Part shown: in pieces, positions 14,746-34,088 of the stretch | How positions within the stretch are numbered: position 1 is the first letter of the stretch | Layout of the letters: each line of letters starts with the position of its first letter | DNA from: Candidatus Eiseniibacteriota bacterium | GTDB taxonomy: Bacteria > Eisenbacteria > RBG-16-71-46 > JABDJR01 | Direction: 5' to 3' | Assembly: GCA_963783375.1 (NCBI GenBank) | Contig: CAWANH010000029.1 | Span: 1,440,001 to 1,504,000, forward strand | Length of the DNA stretch: 64,000 bases | Position numbers and translations under genes: made by a program | The notes under the pieces: generated by a model | Database searches by the model: none | What the model saw: the letters and a program-made list of their open reading frames with translations, nothing else | What the model was told of the DNA's origin: nothing

Positions 14746-14977
14746 CCGTCGCCCTCCTCGGGGCCGGGATAAATCCGCGCCCCAGTTCCAGCCCACCATC
14801 TTAGGCCGGGGATGGTAGCGGGGGGAACACCCAGGAATCCTGACCATTTTTGTATTCTATGATTTCCGGTGAGGCCGCGGGATTCTTATTGCGATTGATT
14901 TCGTCCGCTTGTTGTCGACCCATCGCTTCGGTATAGTGCCGGTTGCGAGTTTGCGAACTCTTTCTCTCCGGAGAACC

Positions 14978-15454: not shown

Positions 15455-15457
15455 AAC

Positions 15458-16615
15458 ATGGCGCGCGAATCCCTCTTCCGATGGCTTGACCGCCGCCTCC
15501 ACGTCTCCTTCCTCGTCGACGCGGGCTCCCACAAGACCGTCCCCCTCCATCGCTACACCGTCTTCTACTACCTGGGTGGCATGACGCTGTTCTTCTTCAT
15601 CGTCCAGGCGGTGACCGGCGTGCTCCTCATGCTCTACTATCGCCCTTCGGCCGGGGAGGCGTTCGAGTCGGTCGAGTTCATCATGACCACCGTTCCCTTC
15701 GGCTGGCTCCTGCGGTCCATCCATTCCTGGTCGGCCAATCTTCTCGTCTTCTTCGCCTTCCTGCACATGGCCACCGTCTTCATCATGAAGGGCTACCGCC
15801 CGCCGCGGGAACTCACCTGGATCACCGGTTGCGTGGTCTTCTTCCTGGTCATGGCCTTCGGGTTCTCCGGCTATCTCCTTCCCTGGAACCAACTTGCATT
15901 CTTCGCGACCAAGGTGGGCACCGACATCGCGGGATCGGTTCCGGTGGTCGGGGAGTGGCTGCTGCGGTTCCTCCGCGGCGGCGATCGCGTGACCGGAGGA
16001 ACCCTCTCGCGGTTCTACGGCTGGCACGTGGCCATCCTGCCGTCGATCACCCTGCTCCTCCTGGGGCTCCATCTTCTCCTCGTCCAGATCCACGGCATGA
16101 GCGAGCCCGAGGCGGTCCGGCGGCGCGAGGTGAAGTCTCCCGGCATGAAGTTCTTTCCCCATTTCGCCCTCCGCGATCTCTTCGGGTGGACGGTGGCCCT
16201 GGGCGTGCTGGCCGCCCTGGCCGCGTTGTTCCCGTGGGAGCTCGGCGAGAAGGCCAACCCCTTCGCCCCGGCCTACCCGAACATCCGGCCCGAGTGGTAC
16301 TTCATGTTCATGTTCCAGACCCTGAAGCTCGTCCCGGGGGGCGAGATCGCGGGGATCGAGTACGAGGCGTTTCCCATTCTCCTGTTCGGGCTGGGGGGGG
16401 TGGTCCTGCTCCTTCTCCCCCTCTTCGACACCGGCGCCAAGCGGGTACGAACCCTCTTCACGAACGCTCTCGGCGGAGCGGCCCTGGCCTACGCGGTGGG
16501 GATGACGGTGTGGGGCTATCGATCCGCGGTGCCTCTGCTCCTGGTGGCCGCGGTCGCGGCGCTCCTCGTTTTGACGGCGTGGCTCACGCGCGGCACGCGG
16601 AGGTCACCATCGTGA
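15458..16615 (+). CDS. qcrB: Cytochrome b (b6-like N-terminal part fused to a subunit IV-like part)
   Basis: FYYLGG, RSIHSWSAN, LHM, FSGYLLPW, RFYGWH, LHL, IRPEWYF. Confidence 0.93.
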   Translation: MARESLFRWLDRRLHVSFLVDAGSHKTVPLHRYTVFYYLGGMTLFFFIVQAVTGVLLMLYYRPSAGEAFESVEFIMTTVPFGWLLRSIHSWSANLLVFFAFLHMATVFIMKGYRPPRELTWITGCVVFFLVMAFGFSGYLLPWNQLAFFATKVGTDIAGSVPVVGEWLLRFLRGGDRVTGGTLSRFYGWHVAILPSITLLLLGLHLLLVQIHGMSEPEAVRRREVKSPGMKFFPHFALRDLFGWTVALGVLAALAALFPWELGEKANPFAPAYPNIRPEWYFMFMFQTLKLVPGGEIAGIEYEAFPILLFGLGGVVLLLLPLFDTGAKRVRTLFTNALGGAALAYAVGMTVWGYRSAVPLLLVAAVAALLVLTAWLTRGTRRSPS

Positions 16616-18348
16616 TCGGGCTCTTGAACCTCATGCTCCCGCTTCTTCTCGCCGCGGATCCGGCGGCGATCGCGCCTTCGCAATCGCCACAGGCTCCGCA
16701 GACCCCGCAGACCTCCTGCACCACGTGCCACATGAGCCCCGACCTGTTCGACGCCGAGAGCCTGAAGGAGTGGGAGGGGATCGACCGGGACGTGCACCAT
16801 CAGGCCGGGCTCTCCTGCCAGGACTGCCACGGCGGCAACCCGGATCCCGCGTTGAGCGAGGATGCCGAAGCGGCCATGGACCCGAACTTCACCGCCAACC
16901 CCTTCCGGGGGGCCCCGCTCCGGACGGCGATCCCCGCGTTTTGCGGCCGGTGCCATTCCGATCCCGTCTACATGAAGCGTTTCCGTCCCGACCCGCGGAT
17001 CGACCAGGAGCAGGAGTACTGGACGAGCCGCCACGGCAAGGCCTTGCGCACCGGGGATATCAACGTGGCCACCTGCATCGACTGCCACGGCACCCACCGG
17101 ATCCTCCCCCCGGACAACCCCGAGGCCCCGGTGTACCCGACCCACGTGGCCGAAACCTGCGGCCGGTGCCACTCGGATCCCGAGCACATGAAGGGGTATC
17201 GGCTGGACGACGGGCGGCCCCTCCCGGTGGACCAGTACGCCCGTTGGTCACGGAGCGTTCACGCCAACGCCCTCCTGGTGAAGGGGGATCTCACCGCCCC
17301 CACCTGCAACGACTGCCACGGCAACCACGGCGCGACTCCTCCGGGGGTCAAGGAGGTAGCGTTGGTCTGCGGCCAGTGCCACGGCCGCGAAGCGAACCTC
17401 TTCCGGGCGAGCCCCAAGCAGGTGGGATTCCAGAACCACAACGATTTCCTGGCCGAGGCCGGGGACGAGGGTTGCGCCTCGTGTCACGACGCCGACCAAC
17501 CGCCGGGCACGATGACGGGGATTCAGCGCTTCTACGGGTGCGTGGTTTGCCACGAGAACCACGGCGTCGTCCGCCCGACCATCGCCCTCCTGAGCCCGCT
17601 CCCCGACACTCCCTGCGCGCTCTGCCACGAGGGTCCCGAGCCGGCGGGCACTACGGGGGAGCCGGAGAAGGTCAAGCAGCACTTCCGCGAGGTGCGGGAT
17701 GCCCTGCTGGCCAAGACGGTGGGGATGGCCCCCGAAGACCGGTTCGATTGGCTGGTCGACCAGGCGCTGGTCCTCGATACCCACACGCTCCCCGGCGGGG
17801 AAGGCGAGGCTCCCGCCCTCCGGCCCGAGTTTGCGCGCCTCTTCGAGCGGTTCCGTATCGGCAAGACCCACTACACCTTCGTGGATCCGGAAACCGGGAC
17901 CGAGGTCAAAGCCCGCGTTCGCCGGTGCGGCGATTGCCATGCCGCGCCCCCGGATTCGGAGCCTCCGGAAGGCGGCTTCGCCGTCTCCCAGGAGTATCTG
18001 GACGACATGCATGCGCTTACCTTGCAGATCGCCCGGGCCGAGCGGAGCTTCCTCGCCGCCCAGCGCGGCGGCGTCGAGGTCCGGGAGGCGCTTACCTCGC
18101 TCGATAGCGCGGTGGACAGCCAAATCCAGCTCGAGGTGCTCGTCCACGGATTCTCCACCAGCCAGGATGGAGCCTTCGTCGCCAAGCAGAAGGAGGGCAT
18201 GGCCCACGCCCAGGCGGCCGCGGTCACCGCTCAGCGCGCGCTCGAGGAGCTGACGAACCGCCGTCGCGGTCTCAGCATCTCCCTCATCTTCATCCTCATC
18301 TTCCTCACCGCCCTCGGCCTCAAGATCCGAGATCTCTCCCGACCCTGA
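16612..18348 (+). CDS. 11-heme c-type cytochrome with C-terminal membrane anchor
   Basis: GTG overlaps the cytochrome b stop; signal peptide; 11 CxxCH counted; C-terminal TM GLSISLIFILIFLTALGL. Confidence 0.9.
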   Translation: MIGLLNLMLPLLLAADPAAIAPSQSPQAPQTPQTSCTTCHMSPDLFDAESLKEWEGIDRDVHHQAGLSCQDCHGGNPDPALSEDAEAAMDPNFTANPFRGAPLRTAIPAFCGRCHSDPVYMKRFRPDPRIDQEQEYWTSRHGKALRTGDINVATCIDCHGTHRILPPDNPEAPVYPTHVAETCGRCHSDPEHMKGYRLDDGRPLPVDQYARWSRSVHANALLVKGDLTAPTCNDCHGNHGATPPGVKEVALVCGQCHGREANLFRASPKQVGFQNHNDFLAEAGDEGCASCHDADQPPGTMTGIQRFYGCVVCHENHGVVRPTIALLSPLPDTPCALCHEGPEPAGTTGEPEKVKQHFREVRDALLAKTVGMAPEDRFDWLVDQALVLDTHTLPGGEGEAPALRPEFARLFERFRIGKTHYTFVDPETGTEVKARVRRCGDCHAAPPDSEPPEGGFAVSQEYLDDMHALTLQIARAERSFLAAQRGGVEVREALTSLDSAVDSQIQLEVLVHGFSTSQDGAFVAKQKEGMAHAQAAAVTAQRALEELTNRRRGLSISLIFILIFLTALGLKIRDLSRP

Positions 18349-19096: not shown

Positions 19097-20074
19097 CTAG
19101 TGCACCGCGGCGGCGCTTGCCCCCATCCTCGAGAGACCCTCCTCGAGCAACGCCTTCGCGTAGTCGGGGTTGTGAACGCCCATGCTCTTGTCCTCGTGCA
19201 TGACGTAGAGCCAGTTGTAGAGCGCAATCCCCTGATCCTCGGGGGCCTCCGAGACGGTCGGATGCCCGTCCTCCGAGTTCTCGTTGATGAGGCCGGCGTT
19301 CACCAGCAACGCTCCGAGCTGGCTCCCCAGGTCCTCGATCTCGGTCTGCACGCCCTTGTAGTCGAAGCTCGTGGCCTCGGGGTGACAGCGCTGGCAGGTG
19401 GCCAGGGCGGGCTCGAAGTGGTGGTCATTGGTATCACCCATGTGACAATCGACGCAGGTGTTCGTCACCGCTCCGTAGTGCGGGCTCACGGTCCCCGTTA
19501 CACCGGCGCCGGCGACGCCGAGCAGCATGGCGCTCTGCGGACCGTGGTGCGGGCCCCAGTGGGAGCTGATACCGGTGATCACGCCGTTTTCCGCCACCGG
19601 GAAATCGCGACGCGGCTGGTGACAGTTGGCGCACAGGTTCCCCTCCCCGCCGTCGAAGGTCGCACCTTCGATGGAGGCGAGGTGAACCGGTTGCGCGGTT
19701 CTCAGCGAGAAGTCCGCCATCGAGTAGGTCTCGTGGATCATGTGACAGGCGCGGCAGTCCTGGCGCGTCGGGTCCGGCTGGCCCATCTCCACCTCGGTCG
19801 GGTTCTCCCCCGCCGCCACCATCTCCTGGAAGCCGTTCCCGGAGTGGCACCCGGCGCAACTTGCGCTGCTCGACCGCACGTAGGCCGTTCCGGTGCCGTG
19901 CACGGACTCCGCCCACTCGGTTTGCTTCCCGGTGATGATGCTGCTGGCGTTGTGGCAATCCGCGCAGGACAGCGGCTTGGTCGACTCGACGCGGGTGATG
20001 GTGCGATCACACGACTGGGCGCCGATCAGCACCGCGACTGCCCCGAGTGCTAGGATGGTTTTTGCGACGGACAT
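19097..20074 (-). CDS. Hexaheme c-type cytochrome lipoprotein (c552/OmcB-like helical C-terminus)
   Basis: Lipobox-like GAQSC; 6 CxxCH; WGPHHGPQ and GVHNPDYAKALL. Confidence 0.85.
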   Translation of the reverse strand: MSVAKTILALGAVAVLIGAQSCDRTITRVESTKPLSCADCHNASSIITGKQTEWAESVHGTGTAYVRSSSASCAGCHSGNGFQEMVAAGENPTEVEMGQPDPTRQDCRACHMIHETYSMADFSLRTAQPVHLASIEGATFDGGEGNLCANCHQPRRDFPVAENGVITGISSHWGPHHGPQSAMLLGVAGAGVTGTVSPHYGAVTNTCVDCHMGDTNDHHFEPALATCQRCHPEATSFDYKGVQTEIEDLGSQLGALLVNAGLINENSEDGHPTVSEAPEDQGIALYNWLYVMHEDKSMGVHNPDYAKALLEEGLSRMGASAAAVH

Positions 20075-20107
20075 CTAGGCCTCCTTCTTTTCCTTTTCTG
20101 CTTGCGC

Positions 20108-21676
20108 TTACTTCCCGTGCAGGTCGTAAGCGACGTTGAACCAGACCACATTGGCGGTGTAGTAGCGATCCAGGAGAATGTAATCGTCGTAGTTGTACAC
20201 GTTGTACTTGGCCTCGAGGTGAATGTCGTCCTTGACGGCGTATGCCCCCTCGAAGAAGAGAATCGACTTCTCGATATCCAGGTCGCCGCCCACGTTCAGG
20301 AAGGTGAGACCGCTGGAAAGACGCAGATCCTTGATCCTCTCCAGGTCCACCCGGCCGGTGACGCTGTTGTTCCAGGCCCGGAACCTCCCGGTGCGATCCT
20401 GGAACTCGTCGTTGGAATACTCGTAAGTCCCCGACAACCCGCCCCATCCGGCATAGGCGTACCGGGCGTATGCGGAGGCGACCTGTCCCGTGGCGCTGAC
20501 GTCGATATCGGGATAGTCCCGGTCACGAATACGGAATCCCGAACCGATCGAAAGACCCTTGACCGGGTTCACCTCCAGGTCGCCACGGAAATGGGCGGTC
20601 TCGATGTCCTTGAGAAGGGTCAGCTCCTCCTGGTCCTTCTTCAGCCTGCCCGCGTACCGGAACCTGGCGGTGAGGAGCTTGTTGTACCGGAAGGTCGTCG
20701 CCGCCCGCCAGCTGCTGTAGTACGTGAGGGAGACCTCGTCGTCGTTGGTCTCGTATCCGTAGCCGAGGGAGACGTCGCCGTACCGGTAGAAAACGGTGGC
20801 GTCGATGTCGTTGGTGAAGCGATCCGTCTTGAGATCGGTGGTCTGGTCGTCGATCCGCTGGGCTTCGAATCGGTACTCGAGGCGCAGGGGATCGACCGGA
20901 TCGATCAGGCCGGTGTACTGGAAATTGGCCAGGGTGTAGTCCAGGTCCCCGGTGGAGAGGTTGCTGACCCCGTAGGCCGCCCGCAAGAGGTGTGTCCACC
21001 TGTCGTAGAACATGCAGGGAGTCGCGATCCGGGCCGAGACGACCTGGCCGGTGCGGTCGGCGTCCGAGTTCCGCTGGTCGCTGAAGTCGGAGACGCGATA
21101 GTCGACGGCCAGAACCCTTCGGTTCTTCCGGGCCTCCGCCGACACACGGCCGGAGAGGAGGCCGCTGTCGTACCGGAGCCCCAGGGCGTCGGCGGTTCCG
21201 GGTGGATAGGATAGACGGTTCCCGGTCTGGGTGATGTAGCCCAGGGATCCCTCGAGTTTGATCCAGCGCTCCGGAGTGAATCGCGCGTTCAGGTTCCAGT
21301 TCCGCCGGTCGGACGTCGTGTTGCGGCCGGGGTCGAACACCTGGCGGTTTTGGGTGAGCGAAGCCGACAGCTTGAATCTGCCCGGTCGCCGGTAGAGCAA
21401 CTTCCCTTGACGACTGTCGAAGTTGATCTCCTTGAGGTCGATCATCAGGTAGTTGTCGGGATTCGGCGTTCCGGTCAGGCGGAGCTGGGTGATGGAGAAC
21501 CCGTCGTGGATGTTGTAGGTCTCCTGGACCGCGGACCGGTCCCCCACCTCATCGAGGATGACCCCGCCCAGTTTCACGGTCCCGGTCCACGCCCCCGCCC
21601 GAAGCGGAGCCGCCCCCAGGACGAAGATGAGCATGGCCATGAGTGTCGCTCGGGTCTTCATTCGCATTCGCACCAT
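20108..21676 (-). CDS. Outer-membrane beta-barrel porin, MtrB/PioB-like
   Basis: Signal peptide; alternating aromatic/hydrophobic beta-strands; terminal strand VWFNVAYDL; lies directly after a decaheme cytochrome. Confidence 0.75.
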   Translation of the reverse strand: MVRMRMKTRATLMAMLIFVLGAAPLRAGAWTGTVKLGGVILDEVGDRSAVQETYNIHDGFSITQLRLTGTPNPDNYLMIDLKEINFDSRQGKLLYRRPGRFKLSASLTQNRQVFDPGRNTTSDRRNWNLNARFTPERWIKLEGSLGYITQTGNRLSYPPGTADALGLRYDSGLLSGRVSAEARKNRRVLAVDYRVSDFSDQRNSDADRTGQVVSARIATPCMFYDRWTHLLRAAYGVSNLSTGDLDYTLANFQYTGLIDPVDPLRLEYRFEAQRIDDQTTDLKTDRFTNDIDATVFYRYGDVSLGYGYETNDDEVSLTYYSSWRAATTFRYNKLLTARFRYAGRLKKDQEELTLLKDIETAHFRGDLEVNPVKGLSIGSGFRIRDRDYPDIDVSATGQVASAYARYAYAGWGGLSGTYEYSNDEFQDRTGRFRAWNNSVTGRVDLERIKDLRLSSGLTFLNVGGDLDIEKSILFFEGAYAVKDDIHLEAKYNVYNYDDYILLDRYYTANVVWFNVAYDLHGK

Positions 21677-21680
21677 CCTA

Positions 21681-22640
21681 CTACTGGTGACAGCCTGATT
21701 TGAGACAGCCTTGGTCCCTGAGCGACTCGCTCAGGAAGTTCCGGCTGGTGTAGGAACCGTGAATGTCCACGTGGCAGTCGTTGCACGGAATGTCGGCCCA
21801 TCTGGTTCCGTGATGGGAGTTCATCTGGTGTAGCGGGACGGTGTGGCACTGCTTGCACAGCTGGAAGTTCGGAGCCTCGTAGGGCTGCTTGAGCATCCGC
21901 GGCAGGTAGGACCCGTGGGGGTCGTGACAGTTCATGCAGCCCCCCTCCTCCGTGGAGTAATCCACCGTCGCCTGGTGCTCGTAGGGGAACGGTCCCTGGA
22001 ACTCGCCGTGGCAGCTCGTGCACATCTCGCTGCCGTTCCTGGACATGTCCCGGGAGCCGGCGTCCAGGGTCTTGTGACAATCGGCGCAGTTCATGACTCC
22101 GTCATCGACCGGATGCCGGAAGGGCTTGGCGAACTGATTTCCCACCGCGGTGTGGCACCCCAGGCACAGATCGGGCTGCGCTTTCCTGAGGAGCGGAGGC
22201 TGGGTGGAAGCGTGGACGCTGTGACAGCCGCTGCAGTTCACGTCGCTCCGGGCGTGGACGTTCTTTTCCATCATGTTTTGCTGGTGGCTGTTCAGGTGGC
22301 AGGTGGAGCAGATCTTGCCTTCGACCGCCGCGCTCAGGGCGGCGGGAACCGGCATCGGATACTGCTCCGGGTCCTCCTCGTAGTGACGAGAGTCCCCGCG
22401 GTGGCAATCGGTGCAGGCTACCCGGACATCGGCTCCCTGATCGGATTCCCGGGCCACCCGATGGGGGGTCAGTGCGAGTGAATCGGCCATTCCCTCATGG
22501 CACGTCAGGCATGTTTCGGTTTCACGGGGGTAGTCCCCGGCGGAGGGATCCGGCTGCGATCCGGCGAGAAGAACGATGACAAAAGGAACAAGGAATAACA
22601 CCGGCACGTAGCGACGCAGTTCCTTGGCTTGCTCTTTCAA
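21681..22640 (-). CDS. DmsE/MtrA-family decaheme cytochrome c
   Basis: 10 CxxCH plus terminal CLKSGCH; QFAKPFRHPV, GPFPYEH, CMNCHDPHGS, CNDCHVDIHGS match the MtrA/DmsE pattern; TTG start after GGAGG. Confidence 0.88.
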   Translation of the reverse strand: MKEQAKELRRYVPVLFLVPFVIVLLAGSQPDPSAGDYPRETETCLTCHEGMADSLALTPHRVARESDQGADVRVACTDCHRGDSRHYEEDPEQYPMPVPAALSAAVEGKICSTCHLNSHQQNMMEKNVHARSDVNCSGCHSVHASTQPPLLRKAQPDLCLGCHTAVGNQFAKPFRHPVDDGVMNCADCHKTLDAGSRDMSRNGSEMCTSCHGEFQGPFPYEHQATVDYSTEEGGCMNCHDPHGSYLPRMLKQPYEAPNFQLCKQCHTVPLHQMNSHHGTRWADIPCNDCHVDIHGSYTSRNFLSESLRDQGCLKSGCHQ

Positions 22641-22687
22641 TGGGCCCCCTCCGAAGAAAGACCGCCTATGTAGCTCTTTCAGGGCGA

Positions 22688-22717
22688 AACGTACCAACAC
22701 CTTAACGGAGCCGTCAA
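22688..22717 (-). promoter_or_regulatory. Putative sigma70 promoter for the decaheme-porin-lipoprotein operon
   Basis: TTGACG-N18-TACGTT with TGn extension, in an AT-rich intergenic region. Confidence 0.45.
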
Positions 22718-22911: not shown

Positions 22912-25900
22912 CTACGGCCCCGAGGGGGAACGCACCTGCATGTTCTCCCCCAGGTGGCACTGCATGCACAGGTCCCGGGTCTTGTCGTGGGTCAGGAGCG
23001 CCTCGAAGGGACTCGAGTGCGGGTCATGACAGGACGTGCAGGTGATGGCCAACCCGGTCCGGGGGTCCTTGGTCGGACCCTGGTAGGGGTGGAAGTGGCT
23101 CTTGGTCACATCGTCATGGCACTGGAGGCAGAGCTTTTCCTGAGGCTCGTTCAGGATGCCCCGGGTCGCGCTCCCGTGAGGGTCGTGGCAGGTGTCGCAG
23201 CCGCCCACGTCCGGGTGCTTGTACTCTCCGGCGAACATGGCCCGGTCATGGCAGGTGAAGCAGGTCGAGGCCTCGTCCTCACGCCTGAGAAGCGACGCCG
23301 TCCGCCCGGCATGGGGGGAGTGGCAGTTGAGGCAGGCCAGCTTCTCGGTCACCGCGGGGTGGACCACCGGCTTCTCGGCGTCCTTGGCATGGCCGCCGTG
23401 ACAGGTGACGCAGAGCGCCGCTCCCTCCGCCTTCAGCCCGTTCTGCCCGGCGTGGCACGCCATGCAGTCCTTCTGGGCGTAGGGGGCGTGGTTGAAGGCC
23501 AGGACGAGGCCCGGCTCGGTCGAGCCGTGGGGATCGTGGCAGCTCGTGCAGTCCCCCTTCCCCGCCTCGAACCCACGGTGCCTGGCTTTGAAGGCGGAGG
23601 CGGTCTCGTCGTGGCACTGCCCGCACAGGGCCTTGGCCGGCTCGGCCAGGAGCCCCTTCACCGTCCCCACGTGGGGGTCGTGACAGGTCTGGCAATCCCC
23701 TTCCTTGGCCGGGGGATGGGCGTTGGCCAGCCGGCTCCGCTCGGCGACCGCCGGGTGGCAGTCGGCGCAGAGGCCCGGAGCCGCCTCCTTGAGGAGTCCG
23801 GGCATGACCCCCTCGTGCCCGCCGTGGCAGACCCGGCAGTTCCCATCCCGGACCGGGCTGTGGACCAGGTCGGGGTCGGCCTTCTTGATCCGCCCGCCCG
23901 GGTCGTCATGGCACCGGGCGCAGAGTCCGGGCCCCGAGTCCACGAGCAGGGTCGAGTCGGCGGCGGCATGGGGATTGTGGCAGCTCGCGCACTCCCCCGC
24001 CTCCACCGGGGCGTGAAGTCCCTTGGGGGGCGCCGGGGCCTCGATCGCCCCGTGGCAGGACCCGCAGAGCTCGACCTGGGAGTCCACCAGCTCCACCTTC
24101 CCCCCCGGGGACTGGGGCTTGTGGCAGGTGGAGCAGGACCCCGGGCCGAAGGGCTCGTGGCGGACCGCTCGCAGGAGCCCCTTTTCCCGGCTCCGATGCG
24201 GATCGTGGCAGGATAGGCAGCTTCCCCCCTCCGGGGCGAAGTTGTCGTGGAGCTTCCTGAAATCCCGGTCCCCCACGTCGTGGCAGGAGCTGCAGGGGTT
24301 CTTCAGCGCCACCAGCCCGTCGGCGCCCTTGGTCTGGTGGGGATCGTGGCAGACCTCGCAGTTCCCCTCCTTCACCGGGGGATGGACGGTCCCGCTGTCC
24401 AGGGAGTCCTTCATCGCGGTGTGGCAGGTGAAGCAGATCTCGCCCTTGGCCGCCCTCAGGAAGGGCGGTCCGTCGGCGGTCCCGTGGGGATTGTGGCAGT
24501 CGGCGCACTTTCCCTCCGCCGCCGGCTCGTGGAGGGTCGCGGGGGGAAGATCGGCGGTCACCTCGCTGTGGCAGCCCCCGCAGAGCTCGGCGGCCGGGCT
24601 CACCAGGAGTCCGCGATTGGTCCCGCCGTGCGGCCGGTGACAGTCGGTGCACTCACCCTCGGCGAAGGGCGGGTGGGGGCTCGCCACCCTGAGCTCGTCG
24701 ACCTGCCTCGCGTGGCAGGGCAGACAGACCAGGGGCTGCTTCTGGACCAGGATGGCCGGGTTGTCGCTCCCGTGAGCCTGGTGGCAGTCGGCGCACCCGT
24801 TCCCGGCGAAGGGGAAGTGCACCACCGGGAGCTTCCGCTCCCCGGCGGTGTCCTCATGGCAGGAAAGACAGGTCACGTCCTCGGCCTGGGTCAGGAGATG
24901 CGGCTGGGTGCTGACGTGCGCGGTGTGGCAGGCGCGGCAATCGTCCTGGAGCGGGGCGTGGGGCACCTTGACCGAATCGGCGGCGGCGATCACGTCCTGG
25001 TGGCAGGACGCGCAGAGGTCCGGCGAGGCCTTTCGCAGCATGGCCTTCCCGCCGCCCCCGTGGGGGGCGTGACAGGCGTCACAGGCCAGGGCCTCGAACG
25101 GGGCGTGCCGCGACACCAGGTCCTTCTGGTCGCGCGGGTCCTCATGGCAGACGAAGCAGAGATCCTCGGCGTTTCCCTTGAGCAGGAACCTACGGTCCGC
25201 GCTGTGGGGATCGTGGCAGAACAGGCAGTCGCCTTCCGCCGCGGGAGGATGGCCGCCCGGCCCCGCGGCGGTTTCCCCCACGTCGGAGTGGCAGGTCACG
25301 CAGAGATCTTCCTTCGACGCGGTGAGCTCCCCGGGCTTGTCCGGCAGGCCGGCGTGGCAGGCCTGGCAGTCCGCCTCGGCGTAGGGAGCGTGCACGTATC
25401 CCCGGTTCTGGTCCGTGCTGGTTGAACCGTGGGGATCGTGGCACGATGAACAGGACGCGCCCGCTACCTCCGGTCGAGCATGGAGTTCCGGCAGCTCCGA
25501 TACGGGACCGTGGCAGCGGGCGCAAAGCTCTTTCTCGGGCGCGACCAGAAGGTTCGCGTTGGCCGAGTTGTGGGGAAGGTGGCACTCGGAGCACTTCCCC
25601 TCCTCGAAGGGTTTGTGTTTCCGGGTGGAGGCGATGGCCGCCTTGAGCTTGGGATGGCAGGAGGCGCAGGTCTCGGCTTCGGGACCGCGGAGCAGCCCCT
25701 TCTGGTCCGAGGCATGGGGATCATGGCAGCCGTCACAGGTGACCCCTTCCACCGCCAGATGATCCGAGCCCGAATCCGGGGCCACCTTCACGTCCTGGTG
25801 GCAATCCGTGCAGAGCTGGGGGAAGTCCTTCTGAAGGATCAGCGACTGGGCGAAGCCGTGCCGCTTGTGACAGGACTCGCAGTCCTCCTGCGCCGTCGGG

Positions 25901-26076
25901 ATGTGAACGACCTTCTTCCCCTTGAACTCGTCCCGGGCCTTCTGGTGGCAGTCGTAGCAGGGGCGTCGCTGGAGCGCCTCGCTTCGGCCGGCGAATTCCG
26001 GCAGGAAGAGCCCGGCCGCCACGGCCAGGACCACGAACCCGAGGCCGACGACGGCGGTGCGAACGCGGGGAACCAT
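22912..26076 (-). CDS. Giant 42-heme c-type cytochrome (paired-CxxCH repeat type)
   Basis: 42 CxxCH counted in ~1054 aa; N-terminal hydrophobic signal or anchor; repeat HxP..CxxCHxPH..LL..LCxxCH; start at MVPRVR after GAGGAG. Confidence 0.93.
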   Translation of the reverse strand: MVPRVRTAVVGLGFVVLAVAAGLFLPEFAGRSEALQRRPCYDCHQKARDEFKGKKVVHIPTAQEDCESCHKRHGFAQSLILQKDFPQLCTDCHQDVKVAPDSGSDHLAVEGVTCDGCHDPHASDQKGLLRGPEAETCASCHPKLKAAIASTRKHKPFEEGKCSECHLPHNSANANLLVAPEKELCARCHGPVSELPELHARPEVAGASCSSCHDPHGSTSTDQNRGYVHAPYAEADCQACHAGLPDKPGELTASKEDLCVTCHSDVGETAAGPGGHPPAAEGDCLFCHDPHSADRRFLLKGNAEDLCFVCHEDPRDQKDLVSRHAPFEALACDACHAPHGGGGKAMLRKASPDLCASCHQDVIAAADSVKVPHAPLQDDCRACHTAHVSTQPHLLTQAEDVTCLSCHEDTAGERKLPVVHFPFAGNGCADCHQAHGSDNPAILVQKQPLVCLPCHARQVDELRVASPHPPFAEGECTDCHRPHGGTNRGLLVSPAAELCGGCHSEVTADLPPATLHEPAAEGKCADCHNPHGTADGPPFLRAAKGEICFTCHTAMKDSLDSGTVHPPVKEGNCEVCHDPHQTKGADGLVALKNPCSSCHDVGDRDFRKLHDNFAPEGGSCLSCHDPHRSREKGLLRAVRHEPFGPGSCSTCHKPQSPGGKVELVDSQVELCGSCHGAIEAPAPPKGLHAPVEAGECASCHNPHAAADSTLLVDSGPGLCARCHDDPGGRIKKADPDLVHSPVRDGNCRVCHGGHEGVMPGLLKEAAPGLCADCHPAVAERSRLANAHPPAKEGDCQTCHDPHVGTVKGLLAEPAKALCGQCHDETASAFKARHRGFEAGKGDCTSCHDPHGSTEPGLVLAFNHAPYAQKDCMACHAGQNGLKAEGAALCVTCHGGHAKDAEKPVVHPAVTEKLACLNCHSPHAGRTASLLRREDEASTCFTCHDRAMFAGEYKHPDVGGCDTCHDPHGSATRGILNEPQEKLCLQCHDDVTKSHFHPYQGPTKDPRTGLAITCTSCHDPHSSPFEALLTHDKTRDLCMQCHLGENMQVRSPSGP

Positions 26077-26077
26077 G

Positions 26078-26629
26078 TTACTTCTCCTCGGCGCTGGGAG
26101 GTTCGTAGCCATGAACTTCCTTGAGCTGGAACGTGAAGAACGATTTCGGCGAGAAGTGAGGCGGGAAGTTCAGGAACGCCCACGAGCTGTCGACCGCCGC
26201 CCCCTCCTTGAACACCAGCACGTGGACGGCCGGGTTCTTCATTTCCATGGAGAAGTTCACCGGCTTGCCGCCGGCGATCTTGAAGTCGGGCATGAAGCCG
26301 CTCACCCGGGCGGTGTAGGGAGTGTCCCCCAGGTACATCGTCTCGCCGAGCTTCACGGTGTGGGACTCGCTCCAGCTCGGGTACATCCGGTTTCCCACCT
26401 CGAGGCCGAAGCTCAAGGTGGTGTCGGCCGCGATGGCCGCGGTGTCGGCTCCGGTTTCGGGCCCCGTGGTCCTGGGAAGCGAGCGAAGGATGGCGGCGGC
26501 GCCCGAGTCCGGCGACGCCTCCTCGGGGTGGACGGCCGCCGAATCCGCCGGCGCGTCCTGGGATCGGGCCCCGTCCGCCCAGGCCCAGACCAGGAGTCCC
26601 AACCCCACCGCGATCAAGATCCGTCTCAT
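26078..26629 (-). CDS. Exported protein, DUF2155/ResB-periplasmic-like
   Basis: Signal peptide MRRILIAVGLGLLVWAWA; GFMPDFKI..SMEMKNPAVHV..W.F..FP resembles Geobacter DUF2155 proteins as recalled. Confidence 0.6.
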   Translation of the reverse strand: MRRILIAVGLGLLVWAWADGARSQDAPADSAAVHPEEASPDSGAAAILRSLPRTTGPETGADTAAIAADTTLSFGLEVGNRMYPSWSESHTVKLGETMYLGDTPYTARVSGFMPDFKIAGGKPVNFSMEMKNPAVHVLVFKEGAAVDSSWAFLNFPPHFSPKSFFTFQLKEVHGYEPPSAEEK

Positions 26630-27282
26630 CCGATCCCTCCCTTTCCCGGCGCCACACCCACGTCCGTCCGGTCCGACTCTCCCGTGTCCTTCGGGGGCGG
26701 CGAGCTCGACGCTCCGGCGCCGCCCCGGACCGGAGGCAGGGTGGAGAGAATCCCCTCCACGGTTTCCGAAGCCAATCGCTCCAGGCTGGACACCCGCCCG
26801 ATACCGAACACGCTTTCCTTGTCCCCGCCGTCCCGGCTGTACACCGCACTCCAGAGCACCTTCCCCCCGGGCACCTCCAGGAGCCGGAGAGACACCGAAA
26901 CCTGGGGCACCTGGCTTCCGTCCGCATCCCGATAGCCGTAGGCGAGGACCGACCCCACCAGGAGCGCGTTGGCCCCCATCTCCACCCCCAGTGAATCCAC
27001 CAGGTCCGGGGGCAGGCGGTCGGTCATGATCCACGGCTGCTTGGAGAGCGCAGCCTCCATACGTCCCACATCCACCACCGCGATCCCGCGGTGCTCGGCC
27101 AGGGCCACCGCGAGCATCGGGGCAAGCCGGTCGGGAGCGTCCCGGGTCGGCGTGTAGTTGGCCAGGGGAAGGATCCCCACCCGCCAGCTTCCGCTCAAGG
27201 GCTCCGCAACGTACGCCCGAGGCCCCGGCGCGCAGCCGGCCAGGACCAGGATGATGGCCGCGAGAACCGTCTTCCGGGTCAT
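26626..27282 (-). CDS. Lipoprotein, CsgG/PelC/GNA1162-like fold
   Basis: Lipobox LAGC; VGILPLANYT, LLVGSVLAYG, VSVSLRLLEVPGGKVLWS. Confidence 0.75.
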   Translation of the reverse strand: MTRKTVLAAIILVLAGCAPGPRAYVAEPLSGSWRVGILPLANYTPTRDAPDRLAPMLAVALAEHRGIAVVDVGRMEAALSKQPWIMTDRLPPDLVDSLGVEMGANALLVGSVLAYGYRDADGSQVPQVSVSLRLLEVPGGKVLWSAVYSRDGGDKESVFGIGRVSSLERLASETVEGILSTLPPVRGGAGASSSPPPKDTGESDRTDVGVAPGKGGIG

Positions 27283-27869
27283 CAGCGCCTCGCTCGCGGA
27301 AGTGAGGACAGAAGTCCCCGGCAGACGTCGGCGGTGAGGGTTTCCATCAGCCGCACCCCTCCCCAGCCGAGGATGGGGAAACCGGCCCCGCCCTTCCGGG
27401 TCTCGCTCGCGCTCCAGACCAGGCGGCCGGTGGCCGCGTCCACCAGGCGCACCTCGATGGAAAACAGTGGATAGGAATCGCGCCCGGAGCTCACCATCTC
27501 GTACTGCCGCACCGTGCCCATGAAGATCCCCTGCACGCCCGCCTTTTCTCCCAGTTGGGCCAGTTGTTCGGTCGACCAGGGAGTCTCGGCGGGGATCCCC
27601 CCGCGGATCTGGGTCATGTCCGCGGCGAACTGTCCGGGTTCCACCACCTCGGCGAACCCCCGTTCCAGGAGCTCGGTGAAGAACACGTTGGTGACCCGGT
27701 ATCCCGCGGCCCGATCCTGGGCGAGGCTGGTGAAGGGGATGATGCCCACCCTCTCGTAGAAAGGCAGGTCGGCCTCGGGGTTCAGGAACCGGGTCGGACC
27801 CCCGCAACCGGAGACGGCGATGAGCGTCGTCGCCACCAGGAGCGCTCGGAGCCTCGAAACGTTGTTCAT
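27282..27869 (-). CDS. Lipoprotein, CsgG/PelC/GNA1162-like fold (paralog)
   Basis: Lipobox VSGC; VGIIPFTSL, IFMGTVRQYE, IEVRLVDAATGRLVWSAS. Confidence 0.78.
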   Translation of the reverse strand: MNNVSRLRALLVATTLIAVSGCGGPTRFLNPEADLPFYERVGIIPFTSLAQDRAAGYRVTNVFFTELLERGFAEVVEPGQFAADMTQIRGGIPAETPWSTEQLAQLGEKAGVQGIFMGTVRQYEMVSSGRDSYPLFSIEVRLVDAATGRLVWSASETRKGGAGFPILGWGGVRLMETLTADVCRGLLSSLPRARR

Positions 27870-27887: not shown

Positions 27888-29464
27888 CTAGAAATTCCGG
27901 TCCACCGAGAGACCGTAGGTGTCCAACGTGGCCCGCCCCCGGACCGCGACCTGTCGCCAGGAAAGCTGAACCCGGGTGCGACGGGCAGGCCAGAAAGTGA
28001 AGTCGGTTCCCTTGATGATCTCGGAGGAGCGCGAGGTGAGGACCAGGGCCTCCCGCCGGGACCAGTCGAGGGAGAGGGAGGTGCGCTGGCCGAGCCGCAG
28101 GTTCCCGGTCAGGCTCCCGTAGCGTTCTTCGCGGTCGATCCGGCCCCGTCCGTTCTGGCGCCGGTAGGTCGCCACCAGGTCCGCCCCCGTGGCCGGCTGG
28201 TACCCGACCTGGTACTCCCACTGGCGATCGGTCTGGGCCCTCCCGTCGATTTCGGGGAGGGTGTCCCTCCGCCAGGTGACCTCGAACCGGGTATCCCGGC
28301 TGGGAAGGGTGCGGAGCTGGATCAGGCGATGCCACTGGGTTCCGGTGGAGACCGAGCCCCCCGCGCGCGACGCCCGGAGCTCGGCGCGGGCGTTGATTCC
28401 CTTGCGGAGGAGGCCGTCCACCAGGGTGAAGACGGTGTTCTGGGGGATCGAGCCGTCTTCGGAGCGGATGTTGAAGGAGCGGAGGTAGCCGGACTGGAAG
28501 GTCATCCCCCGAACGATCTCCCGCCGGAAAATGGCCTGGAGACGAGCGTAGTCCGCTTCGATGTCTCCGTCCACGGCCTGGCGCCGTCGATACTCCCGGA
28601 GCCCTTCGAGGCTCAGCCCCTTCACCGGCTGGTAGGCCAGGCGCCCGCTCAGGTAGCGTTCGTTGATGGTCTGATCGGCGGTCAGGGCATTGTCCTGACT
28701 CCGCCCCCAGTACACCAGCGCCGAGGTACCGACGGTGAACCGCCGGGAAGGCGCCCAGCTCGAGTTCAGGTTCATTCGCTGGGTGTAGAAGGTCCGGTCC
28801 CGGTCCCGGGAACCGAAGGTGGAGTAAAGGGCGTCGTAGGTGGCCTGGGCGTTGGCCCGGCCGAGATTGACCCCGGTCCGGAGCCCCCCCGCCACTCCTC
28901 GGTCCGGGTGTCGGGGTTCAGCCCTCCCATGGGGCGGGCGTCCAGTCTCCGCCAGGAAAGGTTGCTTCCGAAAACCCCGCCGGCGGCGTAGGAAACCTCG
29001 GCCCGGCGATCGTCGGTGGTGGAGCGGCCCTGAAGGGTCTCCCGATCCTGGCGTTCGTACTTCAGCGCCATCCTCGGGGCGCCGCGCGGGCTCACGTCGA
29101 GACCGAAAAGCAGGTTCCGGTCCCGGGACGTGCTAACGCCCACCGACGTCTGCTGCCAGGGGGTGAACTGGGTGGTGAGACGCCAGGCAGGCTTTCTGAG
29201 GTCGGCGAAGAAACGGGAGCTCAGGAGGTCCGAGTTCTCTTGTCCCGGGTTCGCCCGGTAGGAGAGGGACATGCGGAGCCTGAGGTCGGCGCTTCCGGGG
29301 AGCACGGCGCGCGTGCTCAGGTCGTAGTAGTGGCGCATGACGTCCGCGTCCGCTATTCCCGAGGTGTGGTGGTACGAACCCACGTAGCGACCCTCGTAGG
29401 CCCCGGCCCCCGCCGGAACGGCCAGAGTCGCCCCGGCCAGGATGAGCGCCGCCCACCGGTGCAT
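27888..29464 (-). CDS. Outer-membrane beta-barrel protein, split by a frameshift at a G7 tract (28884-28890)
   Basis: Signal peptide MHRWAALILAGATLAVPAGAGA; beta-strand pattern in both halves; C-terminal YGLSVDRNF; adding one G joins ...EEWRGG to LRTGVNLG. Confidence 0.75.
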
Positions 29465-30642
29465 CAGGGTCCTCCCCGTCCCCACGGGCTCGGGCTTCCC
29501 GGTGCGCCGTTACCGGGCTCGCCCGGATTGTGAACGTTGTGGGAGGTGGGACCGGAGTAGTCGCGGCCGTGGCAGTCGTAGCAACTCTGGAAGCCGGTGG
29601 AGCGATGGGGGCCCCGGTCGGAGAGGGTGTTCATGACGATTCCCTCCACCGTCTGCGCCCCGGGAATCCCGTCCGAGGCGATGTGGCAGCCGAGGCAGAA
29701 CCGGCGGCACTGGGTCGCGTCGTTCACGGTGTCGGTGAGCCCGCTCCAGTCAACCCGCTCGTCGCTGATCAGGTATCCGTTCGGCTGCACCCGGTTGTGC
29801 CCCTCGGAACCGTGGGGATTGTGGCAGTCGTAGCAGGGGAGCATGTCCCCGACCTGGATGTGCGCGGGCCAGGAGAGGGCGACCCGGGATTCCTTCCGGA
29901 TCTGGTGGCCGGCGTGCTCGCCGTTCAACCCCGCGTCGTAGTAGTCCGCGATGTTCCGGTTCGCGGGGTCCATGCCTCCCGGCGCGTCCTGGTCGTGGCA
30001 GGAGAAGCAAAGCGCGTATTCCTCGGGAGATCCCACCGCGGCGTGGCCGCCGATCCCCCCGTAGGGCTTCAGCAGGAGGTCGCGACGATTCGGGGTGCCG
30101 TGAGGATCGTGGCAGTTCTCGCAACGCCCCTCTCCCGAGGCGTCTCGCCGGGGCATGTCGGGGTCCTGGGCGTGAGGCGAAAAGAAGTGACCCCCGGGCG
30201 TGATTCCCGGATCGGTGTAGGCGGTCTCCCCCGGCCAGCGGCCGCGATAGTTCACGCCGACCAGGCGCTCCCCGCCGGTGTTGGCCTCGAAGTAACCGGC
30301 GTCGGGTTCGGACTCGGGCATGCGGTCGGATTCGCCGAGGGGGTAATTGCCGGGACGGCGGCGGTGGCACGGTTCTGCCCCCTGGTCCCAGAAGGCGAGC
30401 TGGTTGGTGTTCTCGGTGAAGAGGAGGAGCGGATAGGGGGAGGGCTCCCACGCGTCGCCGTGGGGAGGATGGCACTGCTGGCACTGCCCCCGGGCCTGAT
30501 CGGCGTCACGGAGCACCCCGGTCTGCGGGTCCCCATGGGGATCGAAGGGCGTGTCCGCGGATATGTTCCAAGCAGCCAGAAGCAGGGCCGCCGTGAGAAC
30601 CATGCCGGAAACGGGTCTCACACCAAGCTCCCCCGGCCGCAA
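29464..30642 (-). CDS. Exported hexaheme c-type cytochrome with widely spaced hemes
   Basis: Signal peptide; 6 CxxCH plus a lone PCH; start uncertain (30642 or 30603). Confidence 0.85.
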   Translation of the reverse strand: MRPGELGVRPVSGMVLTAALLLAAWNISADTPFDPHGDPQTGVLRDADQARGQCQQCHPPHGDAWEPSPYPLLLFTENTNQLAFWDQGAEPCHRRRPGNYPLGESDRMPESEPDAGYFEANTGGERLVGVNYRGRWPGETAYTDPGITPGGHFFSPHAQDPDMPRRDASGEGRCENCHDPHGTPNRRDLLLKPYGGIGGHAAVGSPEEYALCFSCHDQDAPGGMDPANRNIADYYDAGLNGEHAGHQIRKESRVALSWPAHIQVGDMLPCYDCHNPHGSEGHNRVQPNGYLISDERVDWSGLTDTVNDATQCRRFCLGCHIASDGIPGAQTVEGIVMNTLSDRGPHRSTGFQSCYDCHGRDYSGPTSHNVHNPGEPGNGAPGSPSPWGRGGP

Positions 30643-30774: not shown

Positions 30775-31845
30775 TTACTGGGCCTGGGTGTGGCACTGAC
30801 CGCAGAGGGCGCGGGCCGAAGTCCCGTCGTCGCCCTGCTCGGTCACCGTGCCGGTGCCGATCATGTAGATCAGGCCGAACGCGTTCTGGTTGCCGTGGCC
30901 CTTGTGGCACGACATGCAGGACTGCGTGAGGCCGGTGTCGGTCCCGTCGTATGCGCCGGCCTTCTGGCCGGTGGGCGACATGACCTGGACCTGGTTGGTC
31001 TTCCCGGTCAGGAAGGCCAGACCGGAGTGACCGCCGCCCAGGGCGCCGATGTCGACACCCGCCGCCGGGTGACGCACGAAGTCCGCGGGAGGAGCTCCCG
31101 TGCCGCCGATCTCCGCCCCGCCGATGTCACCGTGGAAGTTGGTGTGGCAGGCCTTGCAGAAGGAGGCATAGGCGGACGCGGTCGTCACCGGCTCGTTGAA
31201 GGTGATCGCCCCGACCCCGTAGTGGTTGGCGCTGGTGCCGCTGGAGGCATTCTCGTACACCCACTTGGTGAGATCGTTGGCACCCTCGACGTCGCCGCGG
31301 GAGTAGGTCAGGAGGGTCGAGATCCCGCTCAGCGGAGGACCATAACCGCCCAGGTTCCGATAGGTATTGACGTGAGCCGAGTTGCCGCCGTGGGGCGAAT
31401 GGCAGTCGGTGCACTTCAGACCATCGGGATCGCTGAACGTGCCGCCCGGAGCCACGGCCAGCGAGTTCAGGGTGTGCCCGGTGGTCGGCGGATAGAGACC
31501 GTTGCCGCCCAACTCGTTCAGGGCACCCGCCTGACGGACATAGCCGTTGGTGTGGGTTTCGAACACGTCCGGCGCGAGCGCCTGCCCATCGTGGCAGGCC
31601 AGGCACAGGTTGTTGATATCGTCACGGAGCAGGAACTCGAACGGGCCGCCCGGTCCGAGCGGCGTGTAGAAGCCCGATCCGTTGGGGTTGTATCCATGGC
31701 TCTGGCTGTAGTGCATGACGTGGCAGTCGGAGCAGATCAAGGCCGAGCCGGTGTGATAATCACCGGCGAATCCGACGGACACGAGCACGGTCAGAGCGAG
31801 GAGAATCCCCGGACCAAGGAGGAGTTTCTTCCTCATAGCCACCAT
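30775..31845 (-). CDS. omcS: OmcS-like hexaheme cytochrome (candidate nanowire subunit)
   Basis: After the signal peptide: YH..CSDCHVMH, CLACH, GH..APGGT..LKCTDCHSPHG, YRNLGG, FCKACHTNFH, RHPA, CMSCHKGH, RALCGQCH; same order as recalled G. sulfurreducens OmcS. Confidence 0.8.
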   Translation of the reverse strand: MVAMRKKLLLGPGILLALTVLVSVGFAGDYHTGSALICSDCHVMHYSQSHGYNPNGSGFYTPLGPGGPFEFLLRDDINNLCLACHDGQALAPDVFETHTNGYVRQAGALNELGGNGLYPPTTGHTLNSLAVAPGGTFSDPDGLKCTDCHSPHGGNSAHVNTYRNLGGYGPPLSGISTLLTYSRGDVEGANDLTKWVYENASSGTSANHYGVGAITFNEPVTTASAYASFCKACHTNFHGDIGGAEIGGTGAPPADFVRHPAAGVDIGALGGGHSGLAFLTGKTNQVQVMSPTGQKAGAYDGTDTGLTQSCMSCHKGHGNQNAFGLIYMIGTGTVTEQGDDGTSARALCGQCHTQAQ

Positions 31846-32912
31846 TACCTCCCTTGCACGGTTGCGAGACCGATTCCGGAGACTCCGGAACCGCTTTGCT
31901 CCACATGATCGCGGGCCCCCGTCACGGGAGGCACGGCCACCTGGAGCACCTGGCAGCGGGCGCCCGCCCGCTCCAAGACTGCGAGCCGGTCCGCGGCCAG
32001 AAAGGCGCACGCGACCGGATAGTTGAACTGGCCGGGGCCGTGGCCGAAGCCACCGATGCGGCCCAGGTAACCGCCCCGGCGATCGAAGACGCTGATCGAG
32101 TGACGGATGGTGTCCACCACCCAGAGGTTCCCGTTGGGGCCCCAGGTCGCTCCCACGGCCATCGAGAAGGTGCCCTCACCCTCGCCGTGCTCGCCGAACG
32201 CGAAAAGCGGGGTGCCGTCGGTGGCGTTGACCAGGACCGACTTCTCACCCATGGGGTCCACCACCGCCATCATGGTCTCTTCTGCGTTCACCGCCAGAGC
32301 CACCGGCGAGGTGAACGGGCCCTTCTCCACCGGTCCGAAGCCCAGGCTTACCAGCGGCTCACCCACCGGATTCAGCACCACCAGGCCGGGGCGGTTGCCG
32401 GAACAGAGCACGTAAATGCGCCCGCTGCGTCCGATCACCACGTCCTGGAGATGGACCTTGGTGGTGAGCTCGGCGGGAAAGATGGGACGGAACGAGGTGA
32501 TGTGCGATCCCTGGGAGGTCATGACCTCGATGTAGTCGCTGAGCTGGTCGGCCACGAACATGCGGCCGTGATCGTCCAGCGCCACCGAGGCCGGCTCCGC
32601 GCTCGACCCCGCCGATCTGCGGATCTCGTAGTCCAGGGTACCCCGGGAGCGCCAGTTGGAGTCGAAGATGACCAGGCGGTGGTTCCCGGTGTCGGCGATC
32701 ACCACCACCCCCCGGGTGCTGTCGGCCACCATGCCCCGAGGGCGGCGGAAGGCGTCGAGCGGGGCGGGACCGGTGACGATGTCGAGGACGTTGAGGATGG
32801 AGGGGGCGGGATCTTCGGGGATGGGCTCCGCGGGGTAGGCCGGAACCGCGGCCACGGCCGAAGCCGAGGCGGCAAGAACCAGGCACAGTACCGCTCCGCG
32901 GAACGCAGACAT
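31845..32912 (-). CDS. NHL-repeat beta-propeller protein, exported
   Basis: FRRPRGMVAD..VIADTGNHRLVIFD; FGEHGEGEGTF; IGGFGHGPGQFNYP; signal peptide. Confidence 0.88.
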   Translation of the reverse strand: MSAFRGAVLCLVLAASASAVAAVPAYPAEPIPEDPAPSILNVLDIVTGPAPLDAFRRPRGMVADSTRGVVVIADTGNHRLVIFDSNWRSRGTLDYEIRRSAGSSAEPASVALDDHGRMFVADQLSDYIEVMTSQGSHITSFRPIFPAELTTKVHLQDVVIGRSGRIYVLCSGNRPGLVVLNPVGEPLVSLGFGPVEKGPFTSPVALAVNAEETMMAVVDPMGEKSVLVNATDGTPLFAFGEHGEGEGTFSMAVGATWGPNGNLWVVDTIRHSISVFDRRGGYLGRIGGFGHGPGQFNYPVACAFLAADRLAVLERAGARCQVLQVAVPPVTGARDHVEQSGSGVSGIGLATVQGR

Positions 32913-33407: not shown

Positions 33408-34001
33408 CTACTTCCCCTCGGCCTTGGGAATCGGGTGCACGATCTTCTTCAGGTACTCGTCGTACTTGAACTCCTTGTGGAAGGGGTTCCCCTCGGCCAC
33501 GTGACACTTGAGACAGGTCTTCTCGTCGACGACGTTGAGCCCGACGGACTCGGGCTTGATCGTGCCGGCGTAGAGCTCTTTCATGACCTTCAGGCCCTTG
33601 TACCCGCTCCCGGGACCGTGACAGCTCTCACAGGAGATCCCCTCCTCGAGGGTGATCTTCTGGTTCTCCAGGTCCCCCATCACCGGGAAAGCGGTGACGT
33701 GGCACTTCAAACAGGCGTCGGCCTTCTGGGGATCGTCGATTCCCAGCTTCTTCGCGGCCGCCTTGGATTCGTCGCTGGCCAGGGCCTCGTAGGCCTTGGC
33801 GTGCGCGGTTCCCGCCCACACCTTGTGCTGGTCACCGGTCGCCGCCTTGCTGTGGCACATCTTGCAGGTCTTGACGCCTACGTAGGTGTACTCGGCCTTC
33901 TTGGCCTCGTCCTTCTTCGCATCCTGGGCCGCAGCCACCAGCCACGTTCCGGCCAACGCCAGACCCACGGAAAGGACGATCAGGGTTCTCTTGCCTCTCA
34001 T
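33408..34001 (-). CDS. Periplasmic tetraheme cytochrome, c554 family
   Basis: Signal peptide; YVGVKTCKMCH, HAKAYEAL, CLKCH, ISCESCHGPGSGY, CLKCH. Confidence 0.88.
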   Translation of the reverse strand: MRGKRTLIVLSVGLALAGTWLVAAAQDAKKDEAKKAEYTYVGVKTCKMCHSKAATGDQHKVWAGTAHAKAYEALASDESKAAAKKLGIDDPQKADACLKCHVTAFPVMGDLENQKITLEEGISCESCHGPGSGYKGLKVMKELYAGTIKPESVGLNVVDEKTCLKCHVAEGNPFHKEFKYDEYLKKIVHPIPKAEGK

Positions 34002-34088
34002 AGTTTACCTCCCTGTCCGACCGGGCACCCGGCTCGGACGCTCACCTTCACCAGAACTCGTCGCGCAACCATACAGGACGACTCCAAC

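Follow-up and report, generated by a model that had tools for sequence, protein, structure and literature searches.

How electrons cross a wide periplasm to or from cytochrome nanowires is an open question. The periplasm measures more than 40 nm in Geobacter sulfurreducens and less than 30 nm in most microbes, and the current model of the crossing to nanowires relies on diffusing trihemes (PMC10954620). The closest described system is a pair of cytochromes with 26 and 16 hemes, which are predicted to be periplasmic, form a core marker of the sulfate reducers that partner anaerobic methanotrophic archaea (ANME), and have a SurA-like peptidyl-prolyl isomerase as a core gene beside them (PMC5539420). 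In the G. sulfurreducens omcS-companion (osc) cluster, GSU2495 is oscI, GSU2494 is oscJ and GSU2501 is oscC (PMC13194489 Table 3); GSU2495 has 26 hemes, agreeing with the gene count from omcS (PMC12977616), and we assigned the letters D to H by gene order. Here we describe a gene in a 64,000-nucleotide stretch of a Candidatus Eiseniibacteriota genome (the window; contig CAWANH010000029.1, positions 1,440,001 to 1,504,000) that encodes a 42-heme c-type cytochrome, almost certainly the single-chain form of the 26-heme OscI and the 16-heme OscJ. The 26+16 pair, its operon and its repeat are already known; we did not find the fused 42-heme form in the literature, and the osc source paper (Shen et al. 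2025), represented here by passages that cite it, may mention one.

The gene (22912..26076, minus strand) encodes 1054 amino acids (aa), of which 1020 make up the mature chain (~134 kDa with hemes). Hemes 1-26 (24121..25959, minus) are colinear with OscI, which aligns with window residues 10-664 (33% over 665 columns, E 2e-111, BLASTP) and scores 349 bits in register vs. 277 for the next register; hemes 27-42 (22954..24066, minus) are the OscJ/GSU2494 equivalent, as judged from an intact 16-heme relative (L118; residues 681-1053, 34% over 388 columns, E 9e-59); residues 670-1054 are also matched by many 16-heme proteins that carry their own signal peptides. The pattern of hemes 1-26 is present in 19/20 of the 26-heme homologues. 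When linkers of fused and split proteins were compared and averaged over pairs, the in-register diagonal scored 7.3, vs. 3.0 for the next best, which lies 26 hemes off; OscJ therefore resembles the start of OscI, as left by an old duplication. The block duplications proposed in the original prediction are thus real but ancient, and self-BLASTP of the 42-mer returned only the trivial match. One result weighs against the assignment: single linkers are poor markers, with the best match at their own position in only 9/40, and the orthology with OscI and OscJ consequently rests on the whole register together with gene order. The G. sulfurreducens locus that we used (G357) was anchored by its OmcS match (6EF8 residues 1-407, E 1e-281), and the window shares with this osc cluster the heme register, the positions of the junctions described below, a C-terminal DPR segment, the total of 42, and, as neighbours, an NHL protein, an OmcS-family hexaheme, a barrel and two lipoproteins. 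It differs in its host, Candidatus Eisenbacteria, in its ~33% identity, and in having one chain with one signal peptide, whereas in split relatives the second gene carries a signal peptide of its own.

The gene is a single open reading frame (ORF) that ends at a stop at 22912 and begins at 26076 behind an AGGAG ribosome site; an alternative upstream ATG at 26112 has no such site. The likely cleaved Sec signal peptide (25975..26076, minus), which was delimited by hydropathy and ends in ..SEA (relatives mostly have AxA before heme 1), is the sole hydrophobic stretch of the protein, and a lipobox scan of the 42-mer found none; for both reasons the protein is probably soluble and exported, with its signal cleaved after passage through Sec. 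The mature chain has 24.3 residues per heme and the protein 42 CxxCH motifs that take up all 84 cysteines (shuffled sequences: mean 0.56, maximum 5 motifs, 2000 shuffles), which bears out the 42 motifs at about one per 25 aa first read from the sequence. Pfam Paired_CXXCH_1 (PF09699) covers 21 stretches (658 bits vs. a cut-off of 20.6), and TIGR01905 scores 618 bits (cut-off 25.2). We also considered an assembly chimera or repeat expansion, an artefact that the original prediction had itself raised. The assembly does have at least one likely indel 3 kb away, in the barrel gene, but the longest exact internal DNA repeat is 17 nucleotides (nt), a same-genus genome (G020) aligns colinearly without a gap over all 3165 nt at 94% identity, and most of the listed homologues have 42 motifs. 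A chimera or recent tandem expansion is ruled out by these findings, and with independent assemblies refuting it we give an artefact practically no chance.

To describe the register, we assigned each heme to a class from its following segment: A, a single later His; B, CxxCHxxH; J, a B of greater length that has one more His; and o, no His. The pattern reads ABABABAJo ABABABAB ABABABAJo ABABABAJo plus a seven-heme tail. The register breaks at three junctions, at hemes 7-9 (25303..25524, minus), 24-26 (24067..24294, minus) and 33-35 (23413..23625, minus), each of which comprises a two-His segment of 26-30 aa (after hemes 8, 25 and 34), followed by one that lacks His (after hemes 9, 26 and 35). 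The J segments are one another's best non-self matches, so that the three junctions, already called similar in the original prediction, are homologous. What that prediction had not drawn is the link with the known pair: junction 2 is the exact site at which OscI and OscJ are split, and the gene boundary falls directly after heme 26. The segment after heme 40, a unique HP..DPR, matches only segment 40. After heme 21, the segment of most 42-mers is longer by an insertion of ~19 aa (its median is 43 aa vs. 24 here), possibly a docking loop. The same junction module occurs in paralogues of 38 and 52 hemes, with up to six junctions (P0098, P0101, P0124, P0125, P0093, P0110, P0127), and is therefore a general building block outside the 42-heme family.

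The alignment of His columns comprised 96 42-mers, namely the window protein and 95 of the 96 42-heme homologues, and between hemes 1 and 42 it holds exactly 42 conserved non-motif His columns (40 at ≥0.9 conservation, the others at 0.84 and 0.71); an additional C-terminal His is found in 70% of relatives and is lacking in the window protein. With one such His per heme, bis-His ligation of all 42 hemes within one chain would be possible, in support of the earlier proposal that the modular repeats supply the distal ligands internally. The ligand count closes best when the repeat unit is read as LCxxCH..HxP..CxxCHxPH, and we prefer this reading, under which each junction would be one extra, unpaired heme. 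Filaments of the OmcS type rely on a neighbouring subunit to ligate one heme; by the count above, with 42 conserved His to 42 hemes, the 42-mer would have no need of a neighbour.

Heme numbers were compared among orthologs, as suggested at the outset: 7993 candidates were scored, 429 passed E 1e-20, and among the best 120 of these 429 homologues 88 have 42 motifs and 20 have 26. Proteins with 129-131 motifs also occur among the matches (P0146, P0200). The 42-mers with a named source belong to Zixibacteria, Latescibacterota, Krumholzibacteria and relatives; within the phylum of the window, a 42-mer match (E 1e-60, partial matches included) was found in 70/201 genomes (49/121 of the high-quality ones) and a hexaheme match in 64/201. 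Twenty loci were fetched, of which 13 have an intact 42-mer, four have it in several frames, two have a shorter frame (34 motifs; 26 motifs at a contig end) and one is genuinely split into 26+16. Among 75 further loci from a scan of named genomes, the same lipoproteins stand beside single 42-mers in some and beside adjacent 26+16 genes in others. Of the 109 loci examined altogether, 76 are untruncated and contain the lipoproteins, and in 66 of these 76 the total, split or fused, is exactly 42 motifs. Of the remaining ten, three have 41, three run into a neighbouring cytochrome (46, 55, 55) and four have ≤39 through frameshifts, gaps or truncation. The cluster also appears on contigs labelled Saccharimonadales and Promethearchaeota (L082, L099), probably through binning errors.

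We built FastTree phylogenies from 83 loci picked for exact counts (40 fused, 43 split) and from 99 rows, and a quick IQ-TREE (LG+G4) from 40 of the 83 loci, of our choice. Fused and split states change twice on the 83-locus tree and three times on the 99-row tree, and a single fused clade was rejected on the 40-row tree (approximately unbiased test, p-AU 1.9e-70); the trees are unrooted with weak basal support (54, 76) and do not fix the direction of the deepest change. One fusion is nested: it is represented by L064 and P0088, which share 71% identity and have a linker of their own, 16-17 aa long. Loci named Candidatus Eisenbacteria nest among those of the window's phylum. That the total of 42 stays fixed through fusion and fission suggests that length matters.

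We then turned to predicted structure. The closest structural relative is the decaheme MtrA/DmsE (6R2Q chain A), with which the 42-mer shares the paired CxxCH repeat (sequence match E 9e-20) and a predicted rod fold, and from which it differs in having four times as many hemes, three junctions and a different operon; membership in the decaheme family (TIGR03508) was rejected because the protein has 42 rather than ten motifs and its 445 bits (cut-off 192) come from 9 repeated stretches. Membership in the HmcA 16-heme family (NF045713) was rejected as well (72 bits vs. a cut-off of 400). The AlphaFold2 model of the mature chain is locally confident and globally unsure (mean predicted local distance difference test score, pLDDT, 87; predicted template modelling score, pTM, 0.56). 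Its residues 272-507 (hemes 12-21) superpose on MtrA with Z 13.2 and 3.9 Å root-mean-square deviation (rmsd) over 219 residues, and the regular stretch is accordingly predicted to adopt the rod-like MtrA fold, as had been expected of the chain. A separate model of hemes 20-32 (pLDDT 87, pTM 0.76) superposes on MtrA through residues 116-269 only (Z 8.3, rmsd 4.2 Å, 122 residues), an overlap that starts at heme 25 and continues past the heme 26-27 boundary; weakly, this suggests a chain that is continuous at the OscI/OscJ boundary, with a possible bend just before it. The match to OmcS reached only Z 3.1, and Foldseek, VIA and wide VIA structure searches gave nothing better than MtrA, which does not make the junction fold new. 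MtrA measures 80 Å from heme 1 to heme 10 (PMC7198977), and a straight chain with this spacing would reach at most 36 nm (41 steps x 8.9 Å), so that the initial estimate of ~30 nm was of the right order.

We predicted the complex of G. sulfurreducens OscI hemes 18-26 with OscJ hemes 1-10 alongside three controls. The pair scored 0.45 vs. 0.00 for the best control, with at least 90% of contacts agreeing between runs and a partner pLDDT of 86. The mark applied to complex scores is reached by 116/157 solved complexes and 2/215 mismatches; at scores of ≤0.60 there are only 18 solved complexes together with both mismatches. Because of this low-score benchmark, and because halves of a split gene can pass by their likeness to solved chains such as MtrA, the pass is weak, and it lends weak support to a predicted OscI-OscJ contact.

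We give an even chance to the 42-mer being a periplasmic wire between the base of an OmcS-type filament and inner-membrane carriers. OscI and OscJ in one chain would fold into a long, soluble, all bis-His heme rod, which would carry electrons between the filament base at the outer membrane and the inner-membrane carriers; the junctions, as unpaired hemes, may bend the rod or serve as entry points. In split species, heme 26 of OscI would dock head-to-tail on heme 1 of OscJ. Heme 1 would face a membrane, probably the outer one; a lipobox before heme 1 in 27/44 split loci (called by regular expression, with a few misses by eye) suggests that this end sits at a membrane. More tentatively, and with the balance tilting against it, the protein could be a cable of fixed length, ~30-36 nm, by which OmcS-type filaments are hard-wired over the full width of the periplasm; its count of exactly 42 hemes would have been kept while the genes fused and split repeatedly in many phyla, and it would supply the inner half still missing from the nanowire circuit of Geobacter, of the ANME-partner sulfate reducers and of the uncultured Eisenbacteria and their relatives.

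Several points weigh against a periplasmic wire. The 26+16 pair has no known function according to PMC5539420 and was unexpressed during metal respiration in four cultured species, and PpcA-E are able to charge OmcS directly (PMC10954620). Neither end of the window protein carries a membrane anchor, and no conserved inner-membrane partner stands beside the 42-mer in the 20 loci. A pTM of 0.56 leaves the global shape uncertain, and the MtrA overlap of the 13-heme junction model stops short of hemes 20-24, compatible with a bend. Finally, oscJ of G. sulfurreducens G357 is frameshifted after heme 10 (L116:4189-5529); a strain difference by a frameshift at position 868 in oscJ is listed (PMC13194489), and other Desulfuromonadia genomes have an intact 16-mer in 13/14 cases, with 15 motifs in the other. 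As G. sulfurreducens makes OmcS wires with a frameshifted oscJ, the full chain is probably not needed for making them.

Some of these structural points suit a different shape. At the junctions the chain might turn back on itself, giving a redox hub or capacitor, bent or ring-shaped, that sits at the secretion barrel's base; the three conserved register breaks, the low pTM, an MtrA superposition that ends at a junction and the lack of an anchor all speak for it. Storage, however, needs no exact total, and 42 is kept in 66/76 loci of several phyla across fusion and fission; known compact multihemes also match poorly, HmcA with the 72 bits given above. We regard such a hub as unlikely, slightly more so than the conduit considered next.

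The conduit is of the porin-cytochrome type: the chain would thread the cluster's barrel with its OscI part outside and its OscJ part in the periplasm, following the model proposed for ANME partners, in which OetA is periplasmic, OetI is the porin and OetB is an extracellular-facing lipoprotein (PMC10553843). The hmlB and hmlA genes on contig DFBQ01000012.1 (PMC10553843 S5 table) are the split 26+16 locus L080, and the hml names probably correspond to the oet names. The SEEP-SRB1 and HotSeep-1 core operon (PMC5539420) and OetABI or hmlAB (PMC10553843) place the corresponding pair beside a foldase, lipoproteins and a barrel; unlike the window 42-mer, the pair is split, its OscI is usually a lipoprotein, and the published model separates the halves by the outer membrane. 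An MtrA-like predicted fold, the conserved barrel and the lipobox in 27/44 split OscI would all suit a conduit. With its single N-terminal, non-lipoprotein signal, the window protein nonetheless cannot have its halves sorted separately, short of moving 26 hemes through the pore; no lipobox was called in 38/40 fused loci, and none in G. sulfurreducens OscI. OscE, OscF and OscG have, moreover, been proposed to secrete OmcS (PMC13194489, citing Shen 2025), and the barrel may therefore be occupied. On balance a conduit is unlikely, and we retain the periplasmic wire.

The 42-mer is the last gene of a tight operon that begins with an NHL beta-propeller gene (intergenic gaps of -22 to 132 nt); a promoter and terminator scan gave results at chance level. 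The propeller (31845..32912, minus) is related to GSU2505, the gene before omcS (E 5e-13). It is followed by an OmcS-family hexaheme and putative filament subunit (30775..31836, minus), which found no Protein Data Bank match as a single sequence and, as a profile from 21 relatives, matched OmcS 6EF8 residues 1-407 (E 3.1e-44), and by a second hexaheme cytochrome (29464..30642, minus). The next gene (27888..29485, minus) is related to GSU2499, by gene order OscE (weak profile match, E 7.8e-7), and its product is likely a beta-barrel of the outer membrane; the gene lies in two overlapping frames with a G run near 28885, and since relatives carry one ORF of ~530-570 aa the frames are probably split by an assembly indel. 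Two lipoproteins follow, one related to GSU2498 (OscF by gene order; 27282..27869, minus; phmmer E 1.7e-24) and one to GSU2497 (OscG by gene order; 26626..27282, minus; phmmer E 1.7e-8 on the containing frame, with weak GNA1162/CsgG matches). The YVTN propeller (GSU2500) is not in the window cluster, and neither is OscH; a single-query tblastn of the genome with GSU2496 gave no match at 1e-3.

A small protein that matches no Pfam family and has a signal-like N-terminus (26078..26629, minus) is encoded in loci that lack the OscH foldase. As a count over related loci rather than a statistical test, the SurA-like foldase GSU2496 (OscH) is present in 43/43 split and 8/40 fused loci and the small protein in 31/40 fused and 0/43 split loci, and the two never share a locus (83 loci). 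This distribution makes the small protein a candidate replacement chaperone; in the Atlas it belongs to unnamed clusters under 0.9 only, with DUF2155 as a lead. A part in filament assembly could also be argued from the genes that accompany the 42-mer, which include proposed folding and secretion genes (PMC13194489, PMC12977616), from its place immediately behind the foldase or the replacement, and from its constant length; the 42-mer would then be a redox scaffold or molecular ruler that poises OmcS subunits and guides them to the barrel without respiratory flux. Against it stand the cost of 42 hemes, the broken oscJ of G. sulfurreducens G357, a species that is the source of the OmcS wire structure, and the homologues in ANME partners that have been proposed as electron-uptake parts (PMC5539420). 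Such a role seems improbable to us, and less probable than the hub or the conduit.

The soluble carriers of this genome bear on the earlier suggestion that the chain would span the periplasm without shuttles. In agreement with it, none of the genome's 36 frames with ≥3 motifs is a short PpcA-like triheme; against it, the genome has c554-like tetrahemes, one of them with a signal-like N-terminus 7 kb from the 42-mer. Just upstream of the cluster (33408-35600, minus) lie genes for a NapC/NirT-like membrane hexaheme and a c554-like tetraheme, a possible quinol-side partner that is also adjacent in L021, of the same family; the other loci gave weak partial matches only. A Rieske protein, a cytochrome b and an 11-heme cytochrome stand in a row at 14909-18348 (plus), a bc-type quinol complex facing the cluster. 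On the other side, 211 nt after the 42-mer, a separate porin-cytochrome-like module (19097-22700, minus) contains a decaheme (TIGR03508 182 bits, cut-off 192) and a 522-aa likely barrel, both at 20108-22700, and a hexaheme with a lipoprotein-like N-terminus; the 522-aa protein had no family match. We rejected this block as a fixed partner, as the fetched 13-20 kb contained its barrel in L021 and L025 alone among the 20 loci. Elsewhere in the genome (G000:C28:1119068-1127193, plus) a giant cytochrome with near-identical tandem three-heme repeats spans three overlapping frames with 51, 9 and 15 CxxCH, ~75 if they are one gene, probably interrupted by assembly indels, and is preceded by a 23-heme ORF; the 42-mer is therefore not the largest multiheme of this genome.

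The natural one-chain version indicates that OscI and OscJ work as a head-to-tail unit of fixed heme number, and it thereby constrains the published model in which the outer membrane lies between the halves. If the oscJ frameshift is real, the type strain of G. sulfurreducens lacks full-length OscJ; the fused form can be expressed and imaged from one gene. OmcS-type clusters are thereby also placed in an uncultured phylum, in roughly one of every three genomes sampled (70/201 by the 42-mer and 64/201 by the hexaheme).

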